From a virus: a stretch of 64,000 nucleotides of DNA. The notes beneath the pieces were generated by a model that did not search any database, was not told the DNA's origin, and saw only the letters and a list, made by a program, of their open reading frames with translations. Below, piece after piece: positions 6,565-39,085 of this stretch (position 1 is the stretch's first letter; each line of letters opens with the position of its first letter). The position numbers were made by a program, and so were the translations under genes. The stretch is from the IMG/VR virus record IMGVR_UViG_3300032245_001127. One strand, given 5' to 3'.

Positions 6565-9000
6565 TTAAACCTCTGATATAAGAGTAAAGCCATCAGCAAT
6601 CTTTAAATGATCTCGAACTGTAAATGTTTCATATCTATTTCCATCATATTTCCATGATATGTGTAACCAAACTGTTTTTGCGCCAGCATATGAAAGAACG
6701 ATTCGATCATATCCATATGGTAAATTTTCAGCTAATGCGATTGCTGCAGCAACATGTTGCGCACGATTCCATCCTGAGAAACGTATATCAACTGCTTCAC
6801 CAACATAATGTTGTGAAGATTCTGGTGCTCCTGGAATTTCTTCTTTATTTCTAAACCCATTTAGAATAATTAAATTTGCATATAAATCTTTTGCTGGTTC
6901 AAGAACATATTCGCATAATCCTTTTAAATTACAAACGATTGACGATTTGGTCACACCTAATTGATCGATAATCGGTATTCCACCATTTCGATTAAGTGCT
7001 GCTAATTGTATTCGAGCAGATAATTGAAGACTTGGATCAAAAGTTGTTAAACTATCGATTAATTCGCAATTTCGTGAAGCGATTGATGGAACCACACCAC
7101 CAACTGGAATTGTGTTTGCTCCTAAAGTTCCTAAATCTAAATTTTTACTTAAATATAATCCACGAGTTATTTGTCTTTGTCTGTGTGCGATCGCATCTCC
7201 TTCGTCTGGAGTTTCATAAAGTAGTTGTTCACGATTACTTCGAGAATTCACAATCAATGGTGAAAACACAGGCATAATTGGAGATTCTACTGCGTTTTCG
7301 TTAATAGCTAATCCAGTTGAAGAATATCCTTCTCCTATTTCTATTTTTGCGCCATCAATTTGAGTTAAATTTTCTCCATTAATTGAGAATGTTCCTTTAG
7401 CTTCCATTAATATATTATTCGCAATTACATTATAATTTCCTGCAACGTTTGCATTTAAATTTCCAGCAATAATTAAATTACAATCATTATTAATTTGTAT
7501 ATCTCCTGGACCATCGATTCTTATTTTACCACCATTCTTTACTACGATATCTAATTCGCCATAAACTGTTAAAACCTTTGACCCATTGCTTACTTCGTAA
7601 GTGTTTCGTTCATTTAATACGTATCGATCTCCTGCGACACGATCAGTTAATGTTCCATTTGAATCCCATTCGTGCCAAGATCCTCTACGATGATATAGAT
7701 TAATACGTTCAGCATTCGGTGTATCGTCCATTTCAAATACATGACCACTTTCTGTTTCAATTACTTTATTAAATGGATATTCAGCATTATAAGGTACTTC
7801 TGGTGCGTCCCATGTACTATAATCAAATCTTTCTAAATTAAATGCACGTGCTGCTTCTTTTTGATACACGGAAGTTTTATCTATATTCTCATGTCTTGCT
7901 AATCTGCTTGTATCTGGTTCGTTAGTATATGTAACATATCCAGATGCAGCACCGAATAATCCAGCATAAACGCCTTTTTTAGTTCCAGCATTACCAGAAG
8001 AATTGTTTGTGCCTATCGGATCTACATAAGCCGTATTTTCATCAAAAAGTTCTCCACCAAATTTTGGTGTTCCAACTGAAGTGAATTTTTTTGCTGCAGC
8101 AGTTCTTCTTGATTTTTTTGATGAAATTCCACCAAAAGATATTCCTGATAAACTACTTAAAACACTATCAACTCCAATACCACTCGCTAATCCTGAAATA
8201 GCACCAGCAGCACCAGCATAGTCTGCCGAATTAATAAGTGGTAATACTGAAGATGCTTTAAATGCACCAACTCCTAAATCAGAAGCAACATCGACTACAG
8301 AATCAAACATTTCTTGATTGACTAATCCTCGAACTGAACCTGCAAGATTTGCGGCAACATCATCATTTAAATAATTTTTAAATTCAGAAACAGCGATTGG
8401 TTGATCTACACTTCCAGGATAAGTAGAAGAAACAGGCAATCCTTGCCAAGAAGTTTGACCATAACCAATTGTATATGTGTCGACACCATTTATTTTAGAA
8501 AGAACTGGTGTATCAGAAAAAGGGGTATTCTCTATAATACTATTTACTGTTGCATCTGTAACAGAAAATGTAGAGAAAGGTCTTGCGTCTTGTATTTCGA
8601 GAGATGCGTTTGAAATTTCACCACTATAAGTTTTCGTTACTCCATCAGAACCAATTCCGATTGAAGATGCAGTATTCACTTTTCGATCAGCAGGCTTAAT
8701 AGATAATGTTGTTTCGTTGTTTTGTGGAATCCCTGCAAGTGTTCCGAATATGACTGGAACTTGTTGATCTTTATCTGTAAACCCAATCAATACGACACTG
8801 CCAAGAGTAATTCCTGTTGGGCTAATTCCTATGCCAGCACTCGCAGCAGAATTAATCGATGAAACAGGCATCGCCCATGGTAAATCTACTGTTGGAAGTA
8901 TAGAAACATCTTCGTCATGTACACCAACTACACGTACTTGACATCTTCCTAATTTTAATGGGTCGTTTCTATTTTCAACTCTTCCTATATAAAATTGCAT
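6565..9000 (-). CDS. gp5: Baseplate central spike gp5: OB-fold, lysozyme-like domain, beta-helix, C-terminal peptidase M15-like domain
   Basis: GRVENRNDPLKLGRCQVRVVGVH...LPWA; YTIGYG; YPFNKVIETESGHVFEMDDTP.AERI..YHR.G; SQHYVGEAVD...WLHISW. Confidence 0.9.
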   Translation of the reverse strand: MQFYIGRVENRNDPLKLGRCQVRVVGVHDEDVSILPTVDLPWAMPVSSINSAASAGIGISPTGITLGSVVLIGFTDKDQQVPVIFGTLAGIPQNNETTLSIKPADRKVNTASSIGIGSDGVTKTYSGEISNASLEIQDARPFSTFSVTDATVNSIIENTPFSDTPVLSKINGVDTYTIGYGQTSWQGLPVSSTYPGSVDQPIAVSEFKNYLNDDVAANLAGSVRGLVNQEMFDSVVDVASDLGVGAFKASSVLPLINSADYAGAAGAISGLASGIGVDSVLSSLSGISFGGISSKKSRRTAAAKKFTSVGTPKFGGELFDENTAYVDPIGTNNSSGNAGTKKGVYAGLFGAASGYVTYTNEPDTSRLARHENIDKTSVYQKEAARAFNLERFDYSTWDAPEVPYNAEYPFNKVIETESGHVFEMDDTPNAERINLYHRRGSWHEWDSNGTLTDRVAGDRYVLNERNTYEVSNGSKVLTVYGELDIVVKNGGKIRIDGPGDIQINNDCNLIIAGNLNANVAGNYNVIANNILMEAKGTFSINGENLTQIDGAKIEIGEGYSSTGLAINENAVESPIMPVFSPLIVNSRSNREQLLYETPDEGDAIAHRQRQITRGLYLSKNLDLGTLGANTIPVGGVVPSIASRNCELIDSLTTFDPSLQLSARIQLAALNRNGGIPIIDQLGVTKSSIVCNLKGLCEYVLEPAKDLYANLIILNGFRNKEEIPGAPESSQHYVGEAVDIRFSGWNRAQHVAAAIALAENLPYGYDRIVLSYAGAKTVWLHISWKYDGNRYETFTVRDHLKIADGFTLISEV

Positions 9001-11966: not shown

Positions 11967-12003
11967 TATAAATAGTTATTATTACTATTATTTCATTATT
12001 TAG
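11967..12003. promoter_or_regulatory. Opposed late promoters: TATAAATA (+, 11967-11974, gp4) and CTAAATA (-, 11997-12003, gp48)
   Basis: Both lie in the 46-bp gap between divergent late operons. Confidence 0.7.
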
Positions 12004-12005
12004 GT

Positions 12006-12449
12006 ATGTTTCATAAAAGAAAGTATAAACCAATACATCCAGAGAAATATGCAGGTGATCCTACTTGTATTATTCTAAGAAGTTCATGGGAATCAAGATT
12101 TGCATCTTGGTGCGATAGAACACCATCGGTGATTTCATGGAAAAGTGAAGAAATAGTCGTACCCTATCGATCCCCAATCGATAATCGTCTTCATCGTTAT
12201 TTTATTGATTTTTCAGTCTCTGTAAGAGAGAAAGATACAAATACTCTTCGAACATATTTAGTTGAAATTAAGCCAGAATCTCAAACAAAACCACCCAAAT
12301 TTCCTGGACGCCAAACTAGATCATATCTAACAGAATGTAACACTTTCCTTGTAAATTCAGCTAAATGGAAAGCAGCAACAGAATATGCCAAAGATAGAGG
12401 GCAACATTTTATCATATTAACAGAAAAGCATTTAGGGTTGGCAACCTAA
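12006..12449 (+). CDS. gp4: Head completion nuclease gp4
   Basis: KYKPIHPEKYAGDP..IILRSSWE...W.SEE..VPY.SP.D...HRYFIDF...VEIKP..QT..P...VN.AKWKAA. Confidence 0.92.
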   Translation: MFHKRKYKPIHPEKYAGDPTCIILRSSWESRFASWCDRTPSVISWKSEEIVVPYRSPIDNRLHRYFIDFSVSVREKDTNTLRTYLVEIKPESQTKPPKFPGRQTRSYLTECNTFLVNSAKWKAATEYAKDRGQHFIILTEKHLGLAT

Positions 12450-12452
12450 ATA
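12446..12452 (+). promoter_or_regulatory. Late promoter CTAAATA (gp2)
   Basis: Overlaps the gp4 stop; 5 nt before ATG. Confidence 0.7.
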
Positions 12453-12457
12453 GTGCT

Positions 12458-13048
12458 ATGGCAACTAGAATAACAGCACAAACAATCTTCGATAGATATC
12501 GTCAAGATCCCAGTATAAAGAATAAAACTCTTAACTGGTTTCAAAGACAGGTAAATATATTGCAAAAAGATCGAATACAGCCAAACGTATTAGTTCGTGG
12601 CGATAAAGAAAATCGACCTACTTCGCGAATTGTTCCTGGAAACCTTTATATGTTCTTTTATGATCCAAAAGGTAAAGAAGAACTTCCTTATTATGATCGA
12701 TTTCCTTTAGTGTTTCCTTATGATGCATCTGCGGATGGATTTATAGGTTTAAATATGCATTATCTTCCATATCAACTACGAGTTCGATTATTAGATCGTT
12801 TGTTAGATTATTCTTCAAATAGAAAAATGGATAGCACGACTAGATTAAGATATAGCTGGGCAACTATAAGATCAGCAAGTAAAATGGCACTAGCCAAACC
12901 ATGTATTAAATCTTACTTAACAAATCACGTTCAGTCTTCAATGTTAAGAGTTGCTCCTGAAAATTGGTTCACAGCAATGATGTTACCAGTTGAAAGATTT
13001 ACGAAAAATAAAAACAACGTCTGGGCAGACAGCATAGGAATGATTTAA
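12458..13048 (+). CDS. gp2: DNA end protector gp2
   Basis: GNLYMFFYDPKGKEELPYYDRFPLV...GLNMHYLP...PCIKSYL. Confidence 0.92.
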   Translation: MATRITAQTIFDRYRQDPSIKNKTLNWFQRQVNILQKDRIQPNVLVRGDKENRPTSRIVPGNLYMFFYDPKGKEELPYYDRFPLVFPYDASADGFIGLNMHYLPYQLRVRLLDRLLDYSSNRKMDSTTRLRYSWATIRSASKMALAKPCIKSYLTNHVQSSMLRVAPENWFTAMMLPVERFTKNKNNVWADSIGMI

Positions 13049-14575: not shown

Positions 14576-15307
14576 ATGGCTTTGCCAATGAATACGACAC
14601 CAATTTATACGTTGGTGGTACCATCTACAAAACGTGAACATCGCTTTAAACCATTTGTTGTAAAACAAGAAAAGGCATTATTAATTGCGATGCAATCTGA
14701 AAACGAAAAGGTGATGGTAGATACTTTAAAAAGTATCATTTCAGATTGTGTACTTGATATAAATGTAAACGAACTTTCAATGTTTGATCTAGAATATATA
14801 TTCTGTTCTTTACGTGGTAAGTCCGTTGGAGAAGAAGTAGAATTAATTGCTCGTTGTAATTCAAAAGAATGTGAAACCAACGATAAAGCAAAAACGTTAA
14901 TTAAATTAAATATAATGGATATCCCAGTGGTTACTGGTGAAGGACATTCTAAAAAAATTCCTTTATTTAATGATGTAGGTGTGATAATGAAATATCCATC
15001 AATCGATACGTTAATTAAACTAAGTGAGTTTAAAAAAGAAAAATCAGCAGATACTGATTTAATCTTTAAGATAATTGCTGATTGTATTGAAAGTATATAT
15101 GATGGTGTTCAAATATATCCTACAAAGGATCAAACACCAGCTGAAGTGCAAACGTTTTTAGATAATTTAACAAATGAACAGTTTGCTAAAATACAAAATT
15201 TCTTTACAACAATGCCGAAACTGACAAAGACAATTGAATTTACATGTTCGGTATGTAATAAAGCACAAACTCGTAAAATAGAAGGATTAGCAAATTTTTT
15301 TTCGTAA
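14576..15307 (+). CDS. gp26: Baseplate hub assembly protein gp26
   Basis: MALP....P.YTLVVPST...FKPFVVKQEKALLIA; FDLEYIF..LRGKSVGE; VIMKYP; FFTTMPKL...C..C....IEGLANFF. Confidence 0.9.
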   Translation: MALPMNTTPIYTLVVPSTKREHRFKPFVVKQEKALLIAMQSENEKVMVDTLKSIISDCVLDINVNELSMFDLEYIFCSLRGKSVGEEVELIARCNSKECETNDKAKTLIKLNIMDIPVVTGEGHSKKIPLFNDVGVIMKYPSIDTLIKLSEFKKEKSADTDLIFKIIADCIESIYDGVQIYPTKDQTPAEVQTFLDNLTNEQFAKIQNFFTTMPKLTKTIEFTCSVCNKAQTRKIEGLANFFS

Positions 15308-15492
15308 TGCTCAGCCATGAGTCATTAGTGAACTTCTATAAAACGAATTTCGCATTAATGCAGTATCACAAATATACGATGACTGAGCTTGATGAACAGT
15401 TACCCTTTGAAAGAGAAGTTTATATAAGTATGTTGATAAAACATCTAGAAGAAGAAAAACAAAGAAACGAACAAAGAAAGTTAAAATCGTAA
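15307..15492 (+). CDS. gp51: Baseplate hub assembly catalyst gp51
   Basis: HESLVNFYKTNFALMQYHKY...LPFEREVYISML. Confidence 0.9.
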   Translation: MLSHESLVNFYKTNFALMQYHKYTMTELDEQLPFEREVYISMLIKHLEEEKQRNEQRKLKS

Positions 15493-16995
15493 ATGGCACT
15501 CGCAGCAGTACTAGAGCAACAACAAACGCAAACGAATAAACCGATCCCAACTACATTAGTTGATTCGGCAGGTCGTCCATTGTCTATTGTCGAAGAACTT
15601 CAAAAATCAACTAAAACTCCGACTCGAGAAGATACAATCGAAGCAAACTCTCAATTAGCAAAACAAACTCAATTATTAGAAATTATTGCGAATGCTGTAA
15701 GTGGAAAAGGTTCTGCTGGTTATAGCGATTCTAAATCAAAATCAAAAGAAGATAATTCAAAGATGTTTTCTGCAGCCACAGGTGGAATCGTAGGTGCAAT
15801 TACTGTAATGTTATTAAACACAATCAAATTTCTCGGTTCATTCGTACTCCGTGCAGTTCCGCAAATTGGAAAATTATTGTTAGCGACAGTGGCAAGATTT
15901 GGTTTATTAATACCAACATTAGTTATTGGTGTTTTTAAAGGATTATTTGATTCAATTAAATTAGCTTTCTCAGGAGCAGATTTTGGTGATGTGGTAACAG
16001 AATTTGTATCAAGTTTAATCAATTTCCTTTCATTCGGTTTTATTTCAAAAGAAACTGTAAAGAATGGTATTTCTATTCTTACGAATGCAGTTAAAGATTA
16101 TATTATTGATCCTATAATGAATTTATTCTCTTCAATTGAGAACTTTTTTAAAACAAACATATTTGATCCGATTGAACAAGCATTTAAACCAATAGTAGAT
16201 TTTTTCACAAACATTAAAAACACTATATTAAACTTCTTTGAAGGATTGTCGATTCCAGAAATTAAATTTACTATTCCGATCGTAAATAAAGAAGTAAGTA
16301 TCGGTCCGTTTTCTCCATTTAAAAAATCGCCAACAGTGGCTCCACAATCTTCGCCAACTCTTCCTGCGCCATCAAATACAGAAGGAGTTTCTGCAGATCT
16401 TTCAGGACAAACTGCACCAATCACACCAGTATTTACGAAACCAATCGTTCCGAGCGCATCTCCGATAAAAATGAATAGAATGCCTACTGAAGAAGCAAAG
16501 AATATATTGGACAAAAATAAAGGTTTAGAGGATGCAATGAACATTCGAATGAATGGATTAATGATGAGTGCTTCAATGTCAGGTGGTCAATTAAAAGATG
16601 AAAAAATACAAGCTGCTCTTTCTGAAATTGGGTCAAAAGAAGAAGTACAAGCATATCTTACAGTAAACAAAGATAAAATTTCTCGAATCCAAAAATATGC
16701 TAATGAAGAAAGTTTACAAGGAATTTCAGGATCAGAAGTAAAAAATACAAAAGCCCAAGAAGCTGGAAAAATAACTCCAGCACCAAGTACAACTGGAACA
16801 GATCTTACGAATAAAACAATCGCTGCTGAAGAAGCAAAAAGTTCTTTGAGTGGCACTACAAATGTAGCATCAACACCAATTACAACGATTAATAATGCAC
16901 CAACACAACAAACAACATTATTTGGTAAATCGCCAAGAAATGATGAGTCATCGATTAATCGTTACATAGATCGATCATATGGTGTCAACATTTAA
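15493..16995 (+). CDS. Probable tail length regulator / tape measure (gp29-like)
   Basis: Follows gp26-gp51; central amphipathic F/I-rich helical repeats; TTINN-rich C-terminus. Confidence 0.65.
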   Translation: MALAAVLEQQQTQTNKPIPTTLVDSAGRPLSIVEELQKSTKTPTREDTIEANSQLAKQTQLLEIIANAVSGKGSAGYSDSKSKSKEDNSKMFSAATGGIVGAITVMLLNTIKFLGSFVLRAVPQIGKLLLATVARFGLLIPTLVIGVFKGLFDSIKLAFSGADFGDVVTEFVSSLINFLSFGFISKETVKNGISILTNAVKDYIIDPIMNLFSSIENFFKTNIFDPIEQAFKPIVDFFTNIKNTILNFFEGLSIPEIKFTIPIVNKEVSIGPFSPFKKSPTVAPQSSPTLPAPSNTEGVSADLSGQTAPITPVFTKPIVPSASPIKMNRMPTEEAKNILDKNKGLEDAMNIRMNGLMMSASMSGGQLKDEKIQAALSEIGSKEEVQAYLTVNKDKISRIQKYANEESLQGISGSEVKNTKAQEAGKITPAPSTTGTDLTNKTIAAEEAKSSLSGTTNVASTPITTINNAPTQQTTLFGKSPRNDESSINRYIDRSYGVNI

Positions 16996-19262: not shown

Positions 19263-19877
19263 CTACAAAAGATCAACGTTTTTTTTCATATCTATAACAA
19301 ATTTGTTATAAACGTCTTCGACTTTTTTACGATCGAATTTCACAAATCGTTCTGCCTTAATGATGCGACGACACTCATCGGCAAATATGATATTGGTTTG
19401 AGTTTTCCAATTATCAAAAAACGAATTAAAAGCATTTAGGATTACAATCGTCTGTACTTTTATATGATTTCCTATATGCAGTTTCATTAATTCTGGTATT
19501 TGCATCGTACTTCCAGAAAATGAATATAAATTATCACTCTTAGTTGTAAGAGAATTAAGAATCGTATTACAATCTTCTTTAAAAACGTGAGTAATAGATT
19601 CTTTTGTTTTTATCCAATCTTTATGCAAATCGTCAGCAACACTGCTATGATAAACAACAGCATCATGTCCGACAGCAAAATTGGAAACAAAATACTCCAC
19701 TGCGTCACTCGGTTTTTTAAATTTTCTACCAAGTTTTTCAAATAAAGACTTATCATTGCGAACATTATATTTCTCCTTATATCCTTTTATAGCACCATTT
19801 TTTTTAAATACATCATAGTCAGTTGTAAAATGTAACTTACTTGCAATGTATATCTTATAAACAGAATAGCCATCCAT
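19263..19877 (-). CDS. gp59: Helicase loader gp59
   Basis: MDGYSVYKIYIASKLHFTT.YDVFK..G...RNDKSLFEKL...YFVSNF; in the gp33-gp59-gp32 block. Confidence 0.88.
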   Translation of the reverse strand: MDGYSVYKIYIASKLHFTTDYDVFKKNGAIKGYKEKYNVRNDKSLFEKLGRKFKKPSDAVEYFVSNFAVGHDAVVYHSSVADDLHKDWIKTKESITHVFKEDCNTILNSLTTKSDNLYSFSGSTMQIPELMKLHIGNHIKVQTIVILNAFNSFFDNWKTQTNIIFADECRRIIKAERFVKFDRKKVEDVYNKFVIDMKKNVDLL

Positions 19878-20110
19878 TATATATTTAGTTTGGCTGTTCG
19901 AGGGAGTAAATTCTTATCCATAGCATTTGCTTCAATCTTTTGCTTAAGAGAACCCTGTATTAAATTTTTAAGAGAATCTACTTCAATATCATTTTCAGCA
20001 GCATATTCTAATACAGCATCTAAATGATTATAGAATTCATAGTTGTTTTTATCTTGAACTTTTAACTCAATAAATTGAGAGAAAGATTTATGATCTGAGA
20101 ACTTTAACAT
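19877..20110 (-). CDS. gp33: Late transcription co-activator gp33
   Basis: FSQFIE...HLDAVLEYAAENDIEVD...LI..SLKQKIEANAM..NLLPRTAKL. Confidence 0.88.
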   Translation of the reverse strand: MLKFSDHKSFSQFIELKVQDKNNYEFYNHLDAVLEYAAENDIEVDSLKNLIQGSLKQKIEANAMDKNLLPRTAKLNI

Positions 20111-29652: not shown

Positions 29653-30234
29653 TTATATGTTAAAATATTTACCCTCTATTTCCATCACTGCAGTTACTCT
29701 CCAATGTCCTGGATTAGTTGCATTATTTACTAATTGATGTTGAATATCATGTCCATTAAATGCTCTAAATTCTCCAGTTTTCCAAACTCTTTTAACTCCA
29801 TCAAATATTAATGCTTGATTTTCTGGATCTGGTATATCAATTCCAAAACTTACTGTATATCCACTAATTGATGGATCTCCAACACTTTGACGTATCCAAT
29901 CCCAAACATAACCATCATGATGGACTGGAAGCATTTTTCCTGGACGAATAAAATTAATACACATATCAATCATTCCTTCAATTTGAAATGCTGCTTTCAT
30001 ACTTCGATTCCAACCCAAACTCCATTTTTCTTGTACTTTTCGACCATCTATTACAGGAAGAGCCTTAAAACCCCCTTTATTCGCTTCAGGCATTGCGTAT
30101 CTTTCGTCTGCGTTCACAGTATCAGTTTCTATACTAAAATTGTTTCTCCATGCTGCATAATCGTTTAAAAGGGCTTGCATGAGCTTTTGCAATGCACCAT
30201 AATCTTTATATTGTATTGGATCACCTAACCACAT
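29653..30234 (-). CDS. AspH/LpxO-like Fe(II)/2OG hydroxylase, paralogue A4 (likely start MWLG at 30234)
   Basis: INFIRPGKMLPVHHD...WKTGEFRAFNG...H...N...WRVTAVME; AGGAGG SD. Confidence 0.78.
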   Translation of the reverse strand: MWLGDPIQYKDYGALQKLMQALLNDYAAWRNNFSIETDTVNADERYAMPEANKGGFKALPVIDGRKVQEKWSLGWNRSMKAAFQIEGMIDMCINFIRPGKMLPVHHDGYVWDWIRQSVGDPSISGYTVSFGIDIPDPENQALIFDGVKRVWKTGEFRAFNGHDIQHQLVNNATNPGHWRVTAVMEIEGKYFNI

Positions 30235-30244
30235 AATTCCTCCT

Positions 30245-30820
30245 TTATAAAGCCCACTCTGTTTCATTTGTATCTACAATTGCAGACACTCTCCAATTTC
30301 CAGTTTTATTCCAAACTTTATGCATATAATTTCTTCCATCAAAAGCAACTATTTCGTTATTTGCATATGCTCTTGGAGCTGAATCGTTTTCAAATTCTAT
30401 TCCAAGTATTTTCGGATCATTGCTTGGCATATCAATACCGATTGCAATAGTCCAGCCTTTTACAGCATGACCAACTGATTCTTCAATTCTTTGCCAACTA
30501 CCAAAATCTTTATGTAATGGTAATCCACCAAATGGTGTAATGAAATTTACTATTGACTGAAATACTCCAGGAATTTCTTTTAAAACTGCAGTAGAACGAT
30601 GCCAGTCATTAGGTACAGCTTTTGTTCCTTGTATAAGTGGAATAGCCCACCAAGAATCTGCATGTTCATGTTCTGCGTTTGGATATTCGTAACGAAAAAC
30701 ATTAATTCCTTTTTCTTTAATATTATGATTCCTTGAAAATGAAAAATAATCTGCTTGTAAAGCAACTGATAACGATTTTAACATTTCATAATGTTTGAAT
30801 TTTTTTGGATCTATCCACAT
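30245..30820 (-). CDS. AspH/LpxO-like Fe(II)/2OG hydroxylase, paralogue A3
   Basis: VNFITPFGGLPLHKD...FDGRNYMHKVWN...WRVSAIVD. Confidence 0.8.
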   Translation of the reverse strand: MWIDPKKFKHYEMLKSLSVALQADYFSFSRNHNIKEKGINVFRYEYPNAEHEHADSWWAIPLIQGTKAVPNDWHRSTAVLKEIPGVFQSIVNFITPFGGLPLHKDFGSWQRIEESVGHAVKGWTIAIGIDMPSNDPKILGIEFENDSAPRAYANNEIVAFDGRNYMHKVWNKTGNWRVSAIVDTNETEWAL

Positions 30821-30821
30821 A

Positions 30822-31541
30822 TTATTCTCCTGTATAAGTAGCCCATCTATTTTGTAAATAATAGAGGTCTGAATTTTTTAAATTATATTGCGTATATTCT
30901 AAATCTATAATTGCTGTAACACGCCAGTCGTTGCTATGATTATATACATCATGATAATGTGTTTTTCCTTCGAAAGAAACCCACTCACCAGTATTCCAAC
31001 CTTTTTTTTCTGGTACTCCAGTGTATTTATTTTTAAAAACAAATCCCATATTAGTAGCATTAGTTGCTAATCCTAATACATTACTGAATCCATTTAGTGG
31101 TCTTCCTATATCTTTTTCAATTCTTTTCCATCCACCTGTATCATCATGAGATGGTAATTCTGATTTTGGTTTTACAAAATTAACAATAAATTGTACTATT
31201 CCTGGAAGTTTTAAAGCCAATTCTGCTGACTCTTTCCAGTCTTCAAAATTTTTCATTTTCTTATTTCCGCAATCAGTAAATACTGCATCGCAAAACCAAT
31301 ATTCGTTTGGATTATGTCGATCTTCAATAGATTCTGGTCTATGGTATAGATCGTCGCCACCTTTTACATGAGCATAATCTGGATAGACGTCATGGTGTTC
31401 AAATTTTTGAACTTGAATACGTTTTGCATATGCTTCATTTGTACCATATTTAAGTTTCCATTTTTCAAAGTCTGATTGTATTACTTTGCCTAAAAACATT
31501 AAATCGTCATAATTTTTATATAATTTAGTATCAATCCACAT
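30822..31541 (-). CDS. AspH/LpxO-like Fe(II)/2OG hydroxylase, paralogue A2
   Basis: VNFVKPKSELPSHDD...WNTGEWVSFEG..HYHDVYN...WRVTAIID. Confidence 0.8.
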   Translation of the reverse strand: MWIDTKLYKNYDDLMFLGKVIQSDFEKWKLKYGTNEAYAKRIQVQKFEHHDVYPDYAHVKGGDDLYHRPESIEDRHNPNEYWFCDAVFTDCGNKKMKNFEDWKESAELALKLPGIVQFIVNFVKPKSELPSHDDTGGWKRIEKDIGRPLNGFSNVLGLATNATNMGFVFKNKYTGVPEKKGWNTGEWVSFEGKTHYHDVYNHSNDWRVTAIIDLEYTQYNLKNSDLYYLQNRWATYTGE

Positions 31542-31545
31542 AATT

Positions 31546-32589
31546 CTATTCTCCCTTTGAATCCTCTATCATTTCTTCTGCATGTAATTCTATATAATTC
31601 ATTATATTATGATATTCTTGATATTCTATAAAATATTGTTTTAATAAATTAATCGTTTTAGATCCTAAATTGTTCCAATAAAAAAGCAATTCATCGTCTG
31701 GTATTGAATCAACATAATGTTTTATTCCACCATTATCTGTTAAATATTTAACATTCGAAAGAATATGTTTATAGATAATGCTTTCATTTTCTGAATCTAC
31801 AACTATATTTATCTCTCTCATAGTTGGTTCTTTTAAAGTTACATAATGATCGTTTTCTAATTTAATTGTCGGATGTGGTTTTGCAGGTAATATAATTGTT
31901 TCTTTATTACCATTAATAATAATTTCTTTTAATCTCTCATTAATAAAATGTTTTTTATCAATATCTATAACTGCTGTAATTCTCCACTCATTCGTGTCAT
32001 TCCACATACTATGACCAGCTTCTTTACCATCAAAACAAACTATTTCTCCTGCTAGTGGATATTTTTGAATTCCTTCGACATCCATTCCTACTGTTTTTTC
32101 ATTTTTGTTTTTCATTCCAGAAAATAATGTAACAACCGCACTATAACCATCTACTTTTCTTTTTAATTGTTCTTCAATACGATCCCAATTACTTGTATCT
32201 TTATGTGGAGTTATTTTACCATGTGGTTTGATAAAATTTATAAGTATTTGATACACTCCATTTAATTTACTCAATGCTTCCCAAGATTTAGGAAAAACTA
32301 TTTTATCCCAAACTCTATTATAATAACATGGAATAGTTTTCCAATCATCTGCATGTTTAAATTCTAAATTATTTGAAGGAACTTCAGTCAATTCGCCAAC
32401 ATATTGTTTTGGTACAATCGTTAAACGGCTAATTTTAGTTTTTGCTTTATCTCCAGTACCATAAGCACTTAATGCATCTGTTTCTATATTATGTTTTTGT
32501 ACCCAAGCTAATATATCTTGTTGTAAGTATGGAACTATTTTTTCTAAATCAGAATAATGATTATAATTTTTTATATTAATCCAAGACAT
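31546..32589 (-). CDS. AspH/LpxO-like hydroxylase A1 fused to a gp26-like C-terminal domain
   Basis: INFIKPHGKITPHKD...FDGKEAGHSMWN...WRITAVID, then IKLENDHYVTLKEPT...IYKHI...NL, resembling the C-terminal half of gp26. Confidence 0.75.
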   Translation of the reverse strand: MSWINIKNYNHYSDLEKIVPYLQQDILAWVQKHNIETDALSAYGTGDKAKTKISRLTIVPKQYVGELTEVPSNNLEFKHADDWKTIPCYYNRVWDKIVFPKSWEALSKLNGVYQILINFIKPHGKITPHKDTSNWDRIEEQLKRKVDGYSAVVTLFSGMKNKNEKTVGMDVEGIQKYPLAGEIVCFDGKEAGHSMWNDTNEWRITAVIDIDKKHFINERLKEIIINGNKETIILPAKPHPTIKLENDHYVTLKEPTMREINIVVDSENESIIYKHILSNVKYLTDNGGIKHYVDSIPDDELLFYWNNLGSKTINLLKQYFIEYQEYHNIMNYIELHAEEMIEDSKGE

Positions 32590-33664
32590 TTCTTCGTTCC
32601 CCTTTTCTTTTTATATCAAGTGTTAAACAATGAACACCACCATCCCAAAAACCACCTTGTCTTTGATTTGCCACATGTAATTTAATTCCGTGCGATTTAA
32701 AAAATTCTTCTAATTTTGGTTGATGGTTGCTTACAACTATGTTCGATTCATCTACCACTACGACATTACTATCAAAAGCAACTTCTTGTGCGAATCCACG
32801 CCACTCAGATATCCATTCTTTAATCCATTCAATACTATATTTTCCTTCTGAAGCTGTCATTCGATGATCGTATTGTATCATATCTATATTTGTAATTAAA
32901 TGACCAAAAGAATGTACATTTATATTTTTATTTTTTAATATAGCTTCTGGTACATAATTTATATCTGTACAAAAACAAGTAGTGTCATTAGTCATAAAAA
33001 AGAACTGATCGATATGTCCCCAACCACGATGTGGCTTATTTACGTTATCAATAAATTTTGTAGAAGGAATATTTCTTTTCATCCAATCTAATCCTAATGC
33101 TGTTCCAGGACCAGCTGAATTTACAATTATTGAATCGCCAACTTTATACATTGTTGCAGTATGCCATAATATTCTATTCACCAAATCTCTTCCATATCTG
33201 TCGCCACCATGTGTAAACCATTGAGTGTCAGGTGGAAAATCTTTAAGTAATGGAACTGGTGTGCTTATCCAGTTATAAGAATTTTTTGTGTACTTTTCTA
33301 AAAATATATTATAAAATGCTAATGACTCTAACCATCGATCAGCCATTGAAGTATATGCTGAATAGATTGTATTTCCATAAACAATATAGGAATCTCTTGG
33401 AACAATTGGTGCGATAGGATTTTTAATTTTAAATTTAGGAAGTTTTAAATTACTTTCAAACGGAAGTATTTCTGGACGATAAACCTTTACATTTAAAGAT
33501 TCAAATACTTTTTGCATATTATCTAAATCTTCTTTAGTTTCAAGAATAATGGGTTCTAACACACGCATTACTTCTGCACTTACAAATGATTTATAATAAT
33601 CAGGTGTAGGAATATTTCCTACTATAATTTCCTCTAAAGGATCATAATCTGTCCAAACACTCAT
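32576..33664 (-). CDS. Amidinotransferase (glycine/inosamine amidinotransferase family)
   Basis: TDYDPLEEIIVG, PRD, GHID (His), GGVHCLTLDI.R (Cys). Confidence 0.88.
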   Translation of the reverse strand: MSVWTDYDPLEEIIVGNIPTPDYYKSFVSAEVMRVLEPIILETKEDLDNMQKVFESLNVKVYRPEILPFESNLKLPKFKIKNPIAPIVPRDSYIVYGNTIYSAYTSMADRWLESLAFYNIFLEKYTKNSYNWISTPVPLLKDFPPDTQWFTHGGDRYGRDLVNRILWHTATMYKVGDSIIVNSAGPGTALGLDWMKRNIPSTKFIDNVNKPHRGWGHIDQFFFMTNDTTCFCTDINYVPEAILKNKNINVHSFGHLITNIDMIQYDHRMTASEGKYSIEWIKEWISEWRGFAQEVAFDSNVVVVDESNIVVSNHQPKLEEFFKSHGIKLHVANQRQGGFWDGGVHCLTLDIKRKGERRNVLD

Positions 33665-33670
33665 AATAAT

Positions 33671-34150
33671 TTATTTAGGTTGATAATCTTTACCCCATAC
33701 ATCTTTAAGATAATTCTCATCCCAAAAACTATAATAATTTGTTTTAATTAGAGAATCTCTTGCTTCATTTAATTCTTTTTTAGGTTGGCATAACATAAAA
33801 TTATAATAACCATTATTTGTTTGTACGCCATTTATAAATGTTTTACGATCTTTATGGTCAGCTAAAAACACTAAATCTGGAAATTTGTTCGCATAGAAAG
33901 AACACCAAGAATCCATATATTCAGGTGTAATGTTTAAATTTGTAACTGTATATACTTTAATTCTTCGAATATTCTCAACAGATGGAGCTATAAAATTTTC
34001 GTCCATATGTAAATATTCTGGAGTTGGTACACCAATACCTTTACTAAAAGGACAAATAGAATGACCATCGAGTGCTTGACGAGGAATTTTAATCCTCGCC
34101 AGCCACTCTTGTAATGCTTCTTTTGGTGTTATATTATGCTTGTCGTACAA
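33671..34150 (-). CDS. Hypothetical protein (DUF1415-like CPF motif)
   Basis: LQEWL...LDGHSICPFSK...FMLCQ...L..AR..L...YY..W. Confidence 0.55.
   Translation of the reverse strand: MYDKHNITPKEALQEWLARIKIPRQALDGHSICPFSKGIGVPTPEYLHMDENFIAPSVENIRRIKVYTVTNLNITPEYMDSWCSFYANKFPDLVFLADHKDRKTFINGVQTNNGYYNFMLCQPKKELNEARDSLIKTNYYSFWDENYLKDVWGKDYQPK
33672..33678 (-). promoter_or_regulatory. Late promoter CTAAATA ahead of the amidinotransferase and hydroxylases A1-A4
   Basis: ACCTAAATA, 7 nt before ATG 33664. Confidence 0.55.
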
Positions 34151-34625
34151 GATATTGATCCTTCATTGAAATAGGATCAAAATATTCTATAATCATACTT
34201 TTCACCATTTCAATATCAAAAGTTTTACATGAAAACAAATCAAAATACATATCACCATTTATATCTAAAAAGTGTATAGTTAATGAACTTGTTGTCAATG
34301 GTTGTATTACTGTCCATCCAGCAATTTCTGGCTTTTCAGCAAAGTGTGTAATCCATGGGGTTCCCCATGCATTCATGTTTATTCTTTTTAATAAATCCAC
34401 TACGAAAGTTTCTAGAATTTTAGGTTCATTAAAATTCTTTTTACATCCTTTCGCATCTAATATTAAATGATATCCCCATGATTGAATAGCAGTATTTGCA
34501 TATTTTTCATGGAATACTCTGCCCACATTATTATTTCCACTGTTCTCAAGTGAAGAAGGAACAGATTTTATTTTTGAAGTTTCGCGTTGGGGAAACTCCT
34601 GTAGATTTAACTTTGCTTGAGTCAT
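34134..34625 (-). CDS. Pyruvoyl-dependent decarboxylase, SpeD/AdoMetDC family
   Basis: WGYHLILDAKGC...GWTVIQPLTTSSLTIHF...YFDLFSCKTFD. Confidence 0.85.
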   Translation of the reverse strand: MTQAKLNLQEFPQRETSKIKSVPSSLENSGNNNVGRVFHEKYANTAIQSWGYHLILDAKGCKKNFNEPKILETFVVDLLKRINMNAWGTPWITHFAEKPEIAGWTVIQPLTTSSLTIHFLDINGDMYFDLFSCKTFDIEMVKSMIIEYFDPISMKDQYLVRQA

Positions 34626-34628
34626 CTT

Positions 34629-35804
34629 TTACTTATTTACCTCTATTACTTGCGACATACATTTTCCTCCGAAACCGAAAGAATTATTTAATGTACGCAA
34701 GACTTTTTTGTTTGTTTTTAAATTCTCACGAACCAAAATTCCTTTTGTATCGCAAGATGCCTGTTTTAAATTTTGTATATGTGGAATAATTCCCTCTTTC
34801 ATTGAAATGATTGAGTAAATGCATTCTAATATACCAGCTGCAGCAAGAGTGTGTCCTATTTTGGATTTTGGAGCCCAAATAGGTTTTTCACCTACGAAAC
34901 TGACTACTGTTTCATACTCGATTGGATCACCAATTGGTGTAGAAGTTGCGTGCGCACACACAAAATCTATATCATTCACATGACCCATTGCTTTAGACAT
35001 AGAAATACGAGCACCTCGTCCATCATTTGCAGGACTCGTCATATCAAGTGCATCACTCGCCATACCACAAGGATATAAAGTTGCATGCACTGTACTGCCA
35101 TATTTCTTGACCATTTTTTCACTTTGTAATATAAGTACACCACATCCATCTCCCATCAGAAATCCTGAACGAGAATCATCGAAAGGCATACTTGTATTCG
35201 CAACTGCACCTAAGGTGTTAAAATATTTAATCGCCATAGGAAAACAACCTGCATCTGCACCTCCTACAATGACATATTCATATTCATCGCAGAGACGCAT
35301 TCCATAATCAATAGTTACAAGTCCAGTTGAACAACTCGCGAAAGTTGCAGCACTTAGACCCATAAATTTGTAATGAGAAGTAATATGAGAACATCCCATG
35401 TCTGGAATACGATTAGCACTCTTACGTGGGTTTACTCTTTTATTACTTTTCGTCGGCAAATACAACTCATCTAAAAATTCTGTATCATTTGACACAGTTG
35501 ATAGAAGAGTTGCCACATCGTAGTGATGTGGTAATTTTGACATAATCAGTGCATCATTCACAGCATGCAACATCATTTTCTGTGCATTTGTTAATGAACG
35601 TAACATCTTATTGTCAAATTCTTTTGGTATAATACAAGTATTAGGATCAAATATTGCTCCTCTATATACTTTACTATTGTCCGCAATCAGTTCTGGTATA
35701 TCTTTAGAATAATCATTATTATCTAACATTCGATTAAAACAATCTTTAGGATTATTCCCAAGACTATCAATCATACCATAACCTACAACATAAATTTTAT
35801 TCAT
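34629..35804 (-). CDS. fabF: Beta-ketoacyl-ACP synthase II (FabF-like)
   Basis: Cys-His-His triad: ASCSTG, AHATSTPIGD, KSKIGHTLAAAG; PFDDSRSGF.MGDG; NSFGFGG. Confidence 0.92.
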   Translation of the reverse strand: MNKIYVVGYGMIDSLGNNPKDCFNRMLDNNDYSKDIPELIADNSKVYRGAIFDPNTCIIPKEFDNKMLRSLTNAQKMMLHAVNDALIMSKLPHHYDVATLLSTVSNDTEFLDELYLPTKSNKRVNPRKSANRIPDMGCSHITSHYKFMGLSAATFASCSTGLVTIDYGMRLCDEYEYVIVGGADAGCFPMAIKYFNTLGAVANTSMPFDDSRSGFLMGDGCGVLILQSEKMVKKYGSTVHATLYPCGMASDALDMTSPANDGRGARISMSKAMGHVNDIDFVCAHATSTPIGDPIEYETVVSFVGEKPIWAPKSKIGHTLAAAGILECIYSIISMKEGIIPHIQNLKQASCDTKGILVRENLKTNKKVLRTLNNSFGFGGKCMSQVIEVNK

Positions 35805-36447
35805 CGTTTACTTCATCATTAATTATAAAATTCTTCATACTATTTAGTGCATCGTCCCACTCAAGAGGTTTCGGATAAGTCAACCCATCAACGTTTATAG
35901 ACTCGTTTGAGTTTAATTTGTAAAACCAAGCACAAATTACATGACGATAATTAGAGCCATTTTCTATGTTGTGTGGCTGTCCAGTATTTGCTAATATGGG
36001 TTCATTCGGCAATATAGTATGTCTTGCTATTTCTTTTTTTAAATTAAAATCAGGAAATTTCATCGTCGGACCACTGTCATTAGTTGTAATAGTATCATAC
36101 CATGACGGATCTTTTACGTCATACCAAACCATTGAATGATCGTTAGTTGGACAATAACACCATATAATTTTAACAATATTGTCTATCCAATCGTCATTAT
36201 CAGTATGTACATACATACGATAATTCGGTTTACTTGAAAATCTTTCTATTCTTAATACACCCAATCCTATATTTTTTGCCCAATCAATTAAACTTGGATT
36301 AATTAAATGTCTTTCTCCATAATGATCTGCGTATTTTGCATCAATCGATTGATCTTTTTCTTTTGGAAAAACATAATCGTTTGTAAATGGATGTTCAAAT
36401 GGTAATTTTAATTTACGAAATGAACGATTTAAGTTTTGTAATTGCAT
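35797..36447 (-). CDS. Cupin-fold Fe(II)/2OG-type oxygenase, paralogue B6
   Basis: PNYRMYVHTD...ILANTGQPHNIEN...RHVIC. Confidence 0.68.
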   Translation of the reverse strand: MQLQNLNRSFRKLKLPFEHPFTNDYVFPKEKDQSIDAKYADHYGERHLINPSLIDWAKNIGLGVLRIERFSSKPNYRMYVHTDNDDWIDNIVKIIWCYCPTNDHSMVWYDVKDPSWYDTITTNDSGPTMKFPDFNLKKEIARHTILPNEPILANTGQPHNIENGSNYRHVICAWFYKLNSNESINVDGLTYPKPLEWDDALNSMKNFIINDEVNDE

Positions 36448-38266: not shown

Positions 38267-39073
38267 TTAATTAATTTGTAAATGCTGTAAACGAGGATAT
38301 ACTTCATCCCATCTACCAATAGAATCTTTTCCAATTAATTTAAGTGAATAACTTAAACAAACTCTCGGACCAGATGTAGTATTTACAACATTATGATATA
38401 TACCAATATTTGTTAATGATGGTTGTGTTAAATCGAATGATAAATTGTGTTGATGAACCATACGAGGACTGTTAGGACCATCTGATAATGCTACTTCTTT
38501 TACGATATAGTATTTTACATCATGATCTCCTGGAACATTATCTTTTGTTGATTCGTCTATGCTAAAATAATTTTGTTGGCTTAATCCATCTTGTTTAAAA
38601 CAATAAACGAAATTAAGTTTAGTTGATTGCTGCCAAGCATCTTTATGAGCACCCAACCACATATTTGCTGGTGTAATAAAAATATCCCAATGAGCAATTT
38701 CTAATCCAACATCTTTTAATACACGTATAAATCTTGGATGTATAAAGTCTTCATTTACATCATTATCGATAATATCGATGCAACTATACCAAAATGGCAA
38801 TTTATCATGCCATTTAATGATTGGTTCTTTAGAAGTATATGATGCTTCTTTTAAATTTCTTTCCCATTTAAGTGGATGGATTAAATATTCGATTGCTTGA
38901 ATTTCTTTTGGTATAACTTTCTCATCAAACCAATATGGTGGTATTGGAAGTGAATCAAACCATTCCTGAGATGTATATGGTCTTGTAAAACCTGCTGGCA
39001 TTTGTAACCTTACTGCATAAGGTGGACAACTATTGCCTATGTGTGTTTCTGGATAAATTGTAAATATACTCAT
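38267..39073 (-). CDS. Cupin-fold Fe(II)/2OG-type oxygenase, paralogue B2
   Basis: WLGAHKD...KLNFVY...PSLTNIGIYHNVVN...RVCLSY. Confidence 0.7.
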   Translation of the reverse strand: MSIFTIYPETHIGNSCPPYAVRLQMPAGFTRPYTSQEWFDSLPIPPYWFDEKVIPKEIQAIEYLIHPLKWERNLKEASYTSKEPIIKWHDKLPFWYSCIDIIDNDVNEDFIHPRFIRVLKDVGLEIAHWDIFITPANMWLGAHKDAWQQSTKLNFVYCFKQDGLSQQNYFSIDESTKDNVPGDHDVKYYIVKEVALSDGPNSPRMVHQHNLSFDLTQPSLTNIGIYHNVVNTTSGPRVCLSYSLKLIGKDSIGRWDEVYPRLQHLQIN

Positions 39074-39078
39074 GCTAC

Positions 39079-39085
39079 TATTTAG
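39079..39085 (-). promoter_or_regulatory. Late promoter CTAAATA ahead of oxygenases B2-B6, fabF and the SpeD-like gene
   Basis: ACCTAAATA in a 13-bp intergenic gap, 5 nt before ATG 39073. Confidence 0.68.

Follow-up and report, generated by a model that had tools for sequence, protein, structure and literature searches.

In a 64,000-nt stretch of DNA from the virus record IMGVR_UViG_3300032245_001127 (the window, a section of the large genome of an uncultured, T4-like freshwater phage), four hydroxylase paralogues are encoded in tandem on the minus strand (31546–32589, 30822–31541, 30245–30820 and 29653–30267). The first of them encodes a fusion of a hydroxylase with a C-terminal domain that very likely derives from gp26, the baseplate hub assembly protein of the same phage. 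The whole fusion gene (31546–32589(-)) is a continuous open reading frame (ORF) of 347 amino acids plus a stop, and its first 14 nt are shared with the end of the amidinotransferase gene upstream. An earlier note on this DNA had described the gene as a hydroxylase carrying a gp26-like extension and had proposed that the extension could dock the enzyme onto assembling hub or tape-measure proteins, which would connect the whole island with modification of the virion.

Residues 1–215 of the fusion (31945–32589(-)) form, judging by their sequence, an AspH/LpxO-family 2-oxoglutarate (2OG)/Fe(II) hydroxylase domain with a complete metal- and 2OG-binding set. The domain was recognized by a PF05118 match over residues 82–211 (E 7.7e-6, 26.3 bits versus a gathering cut-off of 22.6) and by the invariant HxD...H...R columns. 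PF05118 matched all four tandem paralogues and also P0123, a diverged relative of the fusion described below (23.4 bits). There was no NCBIfam match for any of the four hydroxylases. Residues H129, D131, H193 and R203 (numbering of the first copy) were invariant in an alignment of the four paralogues and P0123; R203 is the putative 2OG-binding basic residue. The three paralogues without the extra domain (29653–31541(-), identified as ORFs with PF05118 matches) have shorter C-termini. Those at 30245–30820 and 29653–30267 end 6–7 residues past the last conserved strand (WRV[ST]A...), and the one at 30822–31541 has a tail of approximately 25 amino acids. Among the four paralogues, only the first carried approximately 130 additional residues (214–347, window 31546–31950). 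The alignment thus agrees with the earlier note, which had given this paralogue alone a long C-terminal extension, at about 120 residues.

The extension consists of two parts. The gp26-like (tail-chaperone-like) domain covers residues 223–325 (31615–31923(-)) and was assigned with profiles, controls, an AlphaFold2 (AF2) model and Foldseek. The terminal segment, residues 326–347 (31549–31614(-)), was assigned from the AF2 model and the comparison with P0123. In the model, the last long helix runs on into this segment, the remainder of which is acidic and of low confidence. Conservation was poor, with 18% identity to P0123, whose version is 7 residues shorter.

The phage's own gp26 is encoded at 14576–15307(+) and contains a central domain at residues 109–215 (14900–15220). 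With hhalign, residues 223–325 of the fusion aligned with this central domain at approximately 19% identity, in the same register as an alignment previously made by eye. The single extension sequence compared with 30 gp26 homologues gave a probability of 51%. After addition of the diverged P0123 extension (a three-sequence alignment), the probability was 85% (P 5.9e-6, score 41.0, 102 columns), and it was 90% against the gp26 central domain alone (P 1.8e-6). No match was found between the extension and the gp26 N-terminal domain (residues 1–93; probability 0.6%). Composition-keeping column shuffles of the extension alignment (n = 200) scored 13.5 ± 2.7, with a maximum of 22.7, versus 41.0 for the unshuffled one. 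When the extension alone was scanned against Pfam (24,736 families, E up to 10), PF12322 (T4_baseplate) was the sole match, with an E-value of 0.0013; the match spanned only profile positions 102–188 of 219 and was not full-length. PHROGs returned nothing for the extension. Within the window, a gp26 hidden Markov model (HMM) searched against all 343 stop-to-stop ORFs had the fusion ORF as its best non-self match (E 3.4e-4; the next was 0.1). The best non-self match of the extension HMM was gp26, making the two a reciprocal best HMM pair. We are highly confident that residues 223–325 are genuinely, if remotely, homologous to the gp26 central domain, from which they have diverged. Profile, shuffle-control, reciprocal-match and fold evidence agree in supporting the gp26-like character that had been claimed for the extension.

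The extension contained no cysteine, and counterparts of the gp26 N-terminal domain, the zinc ribbon and the Gp51_C extension were absent from the fused domain. The position N-terminal to it is taken by the hydroxylase. Since the fused domain does without the N-terminal domain and the zinc cysteines, it is a borrowed domain and not a second gp26. The fusion is located approximately 16 kb from the gp26/tape-measure locus, on the other strand and inside a metabolic operon.

The AF2 model of the extension was built from the three fusion sequences only, with no gp26 sequence in the input. It had a predicted local distance difference test score (pLDDT) of 80.4 and a predicted template modelling score (pTM) of 0.72. 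The predicted order of elements was a beta-hairpin, two strands, two helices, two strands and two helices (bbbb-aa-bb-aa). The AF2 model of gp26 (pLDDT 84.1) had its elements from E87 to H211 in the same order. In that model, residues 87–211 are flanked by the N-terminal domain and a C-terminal hairpin bearing C224 and C227, and the first hairpin of the central stretch is broken by a loop bearing C94 and C99. When the extension model was searched against BFVD with Foldseek, the top matches were gp26/gp51 proteins carrying the annotation baseplate hub subunit, assembly chaperone or catalyst (E 3.5e-4 to 1e-2), bearing out the suspected structural likeness to gp26 families. The next matches were siphovirus tail-assembly and tape-measure chaperones (E 0.02–0.1). 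The nearest named clusters in the Atlas were tail assembly chaperone (TAC) families, with a score of only 0.77. The fused domain is folded, non-catalytic and of chaperone ancestry.

The parent protein, gp26, is a gp26/gp51-family hub assembly protein of 243 amino acids (PF12322, E 7.4e-58; phrog_150 'baseplate hub', E 1.6e-61). Its zinc-ribbon cysteines are C94, C99, C224 and C227, of which C94, C224 and C227 were invariant across 30 homologues. The N-terminal domain (residues 1–93, 14576–14854(+)) matched the solved structures 3fgx (Z 8.3), 2ob9 (HK97 gp10, Z 6.8) and 3klu (YqbN, Z 6.4). The gp26 central domain and the fused extension match those TAC chains weakly, suggesting that gp26 consists of two TAC-like domains. 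No sequence similarity was detected between the two halves of gp26 with hhalign.

A T8 run (15295–15302) lies at the end of the gp26 gene, and after it comes a -1-frame ORF of 61 codons (15307–15492), the whole feature covering 15295–15492(+). The small ORF matched phrog_634 (E 2.6e-23) and resembled the gp51 C-terminal region, with a weak Pfam Gp51_C match. The T7–T8 run and the open -1 frame were kept in six related loci. These included L012 (2223–2410), L014 (2208–2400) and L015–L017, the last three at the gp26 gene end; in L012 and L014, conserved residues of the small ORF were encoded upstream of any ATG, GTG or TTG. From its sequence features, the arrangement resembles a programmed -1 frameshift of the lambda G/GT type, placed ahead of a tape-measure-like gene. 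That gene (15493–16995(+)) directly follows gp26/Gp51_C and encodes 500 amino acids with a match to phrog_4200 'tail length tape measure protein' (E 1.4e-5). Its orthologues were 28–32% identical among phages whose gp26 was 60% identical. T4 gp26 and gp51 have been listed among the hub assembly chaperones (PMC3004832). In this phage group, gp26 looks like a tail-assembly chaperone because of its position before the tape-measure-like gene, its TAC-fold N-terminal domain and its G/GT-like -1 extension. The parent protein of the fused domain very probably chaperones the tape measure or the hub.

The fusion was also found outside the window. The same continuous ORF occurred at 98% identity in IMG/VR UViG_3300017917_001739. 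A phmmer search with the extension among 1.84 billion representative proteins returned a single real relative, P0123 (337 amino acids, E 1e-14), with the same architecture and found on three independent Logan assemblies. P0123 and the fusion were 54% identical over their whole length, with 65% identity between the enzyme domains and 36% between the gp26-like domains, and the hydrophobic core pattern of the gp26-like domain was kept. The gene order around P0123 matched the window (FabF, AdoMetDC-like, 159 amino acids, 362 amino acids, fusion, 239, 191 and 193 amino acids). The fusion is neither an assembly artefact nor a unique read-through, since it recurs in the syntenic P0123 lineage on three assemblies and in the 98% IMG/VR copy; it is conserved. 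The frame of the extension was open over 134 codons at 24% GC, and none of 5000 shuffles stayed open.

The fusion was confined to two rare lineages among the 1.8 billion representative proteins. Two further phmmer matches, a 1260-amino-acid cutinase-repeat protein and a lipoprotein, were rejected as spurious; neither matched PF12322 or PF05118. In 50,697 phage records, tblastn with the extension and with the whole protein produced chance-level rows or none, and a blastn search with the island returned nothing. Word-based protein searches with both extensions returned only the query proteins themselves. Scans of IMG/VR and JGI metagenome contigs returned the 98% relative alone, or nothing. PF12322 gave no match in the nearest record, a 68-kb fragment, but the control genomes were equally blank, so that this negative carries no information. 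The suggestion of the earlier note, that docking would hint at what the abundant phage 2OG oxygenases do, does not extend to those enzymes in general, because a fusion limited to two rare lineages offers no general explanation of them.

The gene upstream of the fusion (32576–33664(-)) encodes an amidinotransferase of 362 amino acids. It was identified with phmmer against PDB sequences, where it matched HsvA (5wpi, E 3.3e-19), StrB1 (1bwd, 1.1e-15), AGAT (1jdx, 1.1e-15) and SxtG (4.8e-15). HsvA, the best match, is a polyamine amidinotransferase. The region 32576–35804(-) encodes this amidinotransferase, a 159-amino-acid protein, a SpeH-like S-adenosylmethionine decarboxylase (AdoMetDC) and a FabF-like ketosynthase, with the genes overlapping or abutting. 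The fusion gene is situated within one co-oriented, tightly packed block with the AdoMetDC-like and FabF genes.

The canonical late promoter motif TATAAATA was strongly depleted in the window (2 copies versus 17.9 expected), and one copy was located 32 nt ahead of the late operon starting at 12006. The heptamer CTAAATA occurred upstream of the divergent tail-tube-cap gene (start 11959), at a distance of 38 nt. It also occurred 37 nt before the FabF start at 35804, a spacing like that of the tail-tube-cap gene. The sites recorded were 11967–11974(+), 11997–12003(-) and 35841–35847(-). The copy before FabF is a possible late-type promoter feeding the fusion-bearing operon. CTAAATA was not enriched in the window, and a sigma-70 scan gave fewer sites than expected from shuffles. 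A junction pattern, CTAAATA with the next ATG 5–8 nt on, was observed at 12446–12460(+), 33664–33678(-), 39073–39085(-) and 19877–19888(-). At 12446 and 33678, the TAA inside CTAAATA is the stop codon of the upstream gene. Rather than a promoter, this pattern may represent a signal for translational coupling.

We propose that the hydroxylase would be tethered to a partner through the gp26-derived domain, acting as a protein-binding module. The fused domain is without catalytic features and its parent protein holds tail proteins during assembly, so a protein-binding module is its most likely role. Taken in this general form, with a specific tail partner excluded, the reading of the gene as a genuine, conserved fusion of a hydroxylase with a gp26 central domain serving as a binding module is reasonably probable. 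Its most likely single partner, at a rather low probability, would be whatever the gp26 central domain contacts, either the tape-measure-like protein (15493–16995) or the surrounding gp26 chaperone oligomer. By binding there, the enzyme would reach the tail-initiation complex and could hydroxylate a tail protein. Since gp26 is tail-chaperone-like, a role for the copied domain as a tape-measure or chaperone binding module is reasonable. Docking on the assembling hub or tape measure is plausible and is put forward, at a rather low probability, as the single most likely form of partnership, because a gp26-derived surface would most simply retain gp26's partners and because the fast evolution of the extension parallels that of the tape measure. 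The complete scenario, in which the fusion is an enzyme-bearing tail chaperone whose domain joins the gp26/tape-measure complex during tail initiation, so that an Asp/Asn-type hydroxylase is delivered there and modifies tape-measure or hub proteins, is possible but rather unlikely.

Several observations weigh against this explanation. Only the middle domain of gp26 was copied. The fusion gene is translationally coupled to the HsvA-like amidinotransferase gene, in an operon with the SpeH-like and FabF genes; this context suggests a small-molecule pathway rather than virion modification, and together with the four hydroxylases these genes look like a polyamine or lipid tailoring operon. There was no canonical TATAAATA late promoter in the island, both copies in the window being elsewhere. 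Each sequence score, taken alone, is sub-threshold: the PF12322 score of the extension was 18.9 bits, under the gathering cut-off of 24.5; the P0123 extension alone scored 21.6 against gp26, inside the shuffle range; and pairwise BLASTP of the fusion or the extension against gp26 left the region unaligned. Matches of the extension model to the PDB were weak. The best Foldseek match was 2ob9 (the HK97 tail assembly chaperone, E 0.19), and VIA-align gave Z-scores of 5.6 for 3fgx, 4.5 for 3klu and 3.1 for 2ob9, which is the noise range for this method (the range of 3.1–5.6 covered the chains 3fgx, 5ir0, 3klu and 2ob9). These weak solved-structure matches do not weigh against the fold assignment, because the searches with either model brought up no gp26/gp51 relative among the solved chains. 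Compared with the 98% relative, the gp26-like extension had 6 nonsynonymous substitutions and 1 synonymous, and the enzyme domain 1 and 2, respectively; these counts hint at relaxed or diversifying selection on the extension. A crude Nei–Gojobori estimate of the ratio of nonsynonymous to synonymous rates (dN/dS) against P0123 was approximately 0.75 for the extension and 0.44 for the enzyme domain. Since the extension evolves faster than the enzyme domain, its constraint may be relaxed. Six of the seven amino-acid changes fall in the extension (31546–31950(-) compared with positions 6640–7041 of L006, the 98% relative), although the numbers are small.

The most likely alternative is that a chaperone-derived domain was re-used for a non-tail partner, such as a peptide, a carrier protein or another enzyme of the island (the amidinotransferase, the SpeH-like or FabF proteins or other oxygenases), so that the gp26 likeness would reflect ancestry only and the fused hydroxylase would take part in a pathway of polyamine or lipid type. 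In its favour, LpxO and other lipid hydroxylases belong to PF05118, and the 14-nt overlap joins the fusion to a gene of the HsvA/StrB1/AGAT type. The packed, co-oriented block with the AdoMetDC-like and FabF genes is conserved in the P0123 lineage. With approximately 19% identity to gp26 and with its N-terminal domain and zinc ribbon lost, the domain itself is far from its parent. Freshwater pelagimyophages have been reported to carry speH, fabF and a desaturase gene, speH and fabF being special to them (PMC7029224). Against these points, no partner was identified in the island, the three sister hydroxylases do without the domain, and the phmmer search of 1.8 billion representatives gave no other occurrence of the domain. 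We also know of no precedent for a gp26/TAC-like domain on metabolic enzymes. We regard re-use for a non-tail partner, acting in such a pathway, as possible, at a rather low probability.

Alternatively, the extension could have no specific partner. It might serve self-association or solubility, or it might be what is left, in slow decay, of part of a gp26 copy that illegitimate recombination put behind a hydroxylase gene. Such an origin would fit the elevated substitution in the extension (6:1 nonsynonymous to synonymous versus 1:2 in the enzyme domain, with the dN/dS of approximately 0.75), the poor conservation and variable length of its last 22 residues, and the limitation of the fusion to two rare lineages. 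A decaying remnant would be expected to have acquired stops or frameshifts at such divergence, yet the 134 AT-rich codons were open in both lineages (0 of 5000 shuffles), the hydrophobic core was kept and AF2 was confident from only three sequences. We consider a partnerless extension improbable. Very improbable is a gp26 likeness produced by chance or composition in an AT-rich genome with K/N/I/Y-rich proteins, the extension then being an unrelated small alpha/beta domain: the blank BLASTP result, the Pfam score under its gathering cut-off, the non-significant P0123 extension alone and the solved-structure Z-scores in the noise range would fit it, but the shuffles kept composition and still peaked at 22.7 versus 41.0, PF12322 was the sole family out of 24,736, gp26 was the reciprocal best match in the window, and a model made without gp26 retrieved gp26/gp51 from BFVD with an identical secondary-structure order.

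Of the genes in marine and freshwater T4-like phages that lack an explanation, those for AspH-like and other 2OG oxygenases are some of the commonest, and the borrowed domain of 105 residues gives a concrete handle on the partner of one phage oxygenase. If it binds the tape measure or gp26, tail proteins would be enzymatically modified during assembly, by a new way of targeting an enzyme to the nascent virion. Should the enzyme-bearing chaperone reading be true, the fusion would be the first case in which a chaperone domain directs a phage enzyme to virion assembly, and one branch of the phage AspH-like oxygenases would have a protein substrate. If the domain binds something else, tail-module chaperone domains would be re-usable in phage metabolic operons. 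The fusion also adds evidence that gp26/gp51 proteins are built of TAC-like domains able to fold alone. The significance of the finding is limited by the rarity of the fusion (two lineages in 1.8 billion representative proteins), by the uncultured state of the phage and by the inferred function.

Among known systems, the fusion belongs to PF05118. It resembles AspH/LpxO-family enzymes in its match above the cut-off, its HxD...H triad, its conserved arginine and its setting in a T4-like aquatic phage. To our knowledge, no described member of this family carries a domain derived from virion assembly, and no described enzyme with a gp26/TAC-type domain was found. AspH-like hydroxylase genes have been reported as core genes of pelagimyophages (PMC7029224). 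Enzyme-fused tail proteins, namely tape-measure or hub proteins with lysozyme or peptidase domains such as T4 gp5, likewise combine an enzyme with a module of the tail machinery. Unlike the fusion, they are virion components with a structural role, and their enzymes attack the host wall during infection, whereas the gp26-derived part of the fusion is a fragment of a non-virion chaperone and its enzyme is an oxygenase encoded in a metabolic operon.

The fusion does not belong to PF12322 in the full sense, as the N-terminal domain, the zinc ribbon and the genomic position are lacking and the score is under threshold. With T4 gp26/gp51 it shares a central domain that aligns in register, including the core L..(N/E)D..V.hK.P[ST], I[FY]K, E..(F)..NL and QxF[FY], as well as the order of strands and helices, and gp26/gp51 models were its best structural matches. 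In contrast to gp26/gp51, the fused domain is one of three parts, without the TAC-like N-terminal domain, the zinc cysteines and Gp51_C, and it is located away from the tape-measure gene, attached to an enzyme, with a sub-cut-off Pfam score. The lambda gpG/gpGT TACs (HK97 gp10, 2ob9; XkdN/YqbN, 3klu) resemble the parent gp26, which is encoded upstream of the tape measure, has a -1 extension on a slippery run and shares the TAC fold in its N-terminal domain (Z 6.4–8.3); the fused domain matched the same chains weakly, in the noise range of VIA-align, and also matched siphovirus TAC models in BFVD. In both gpGT and the fusion, a chaperone-type domain is linked with another functional part. That of gpGT is C-terminal, arises by frameshifting and binds the tail tube protein, whereas that of the fusion is an oxygenase, is N-terminal and is encoded in one plain ORF.

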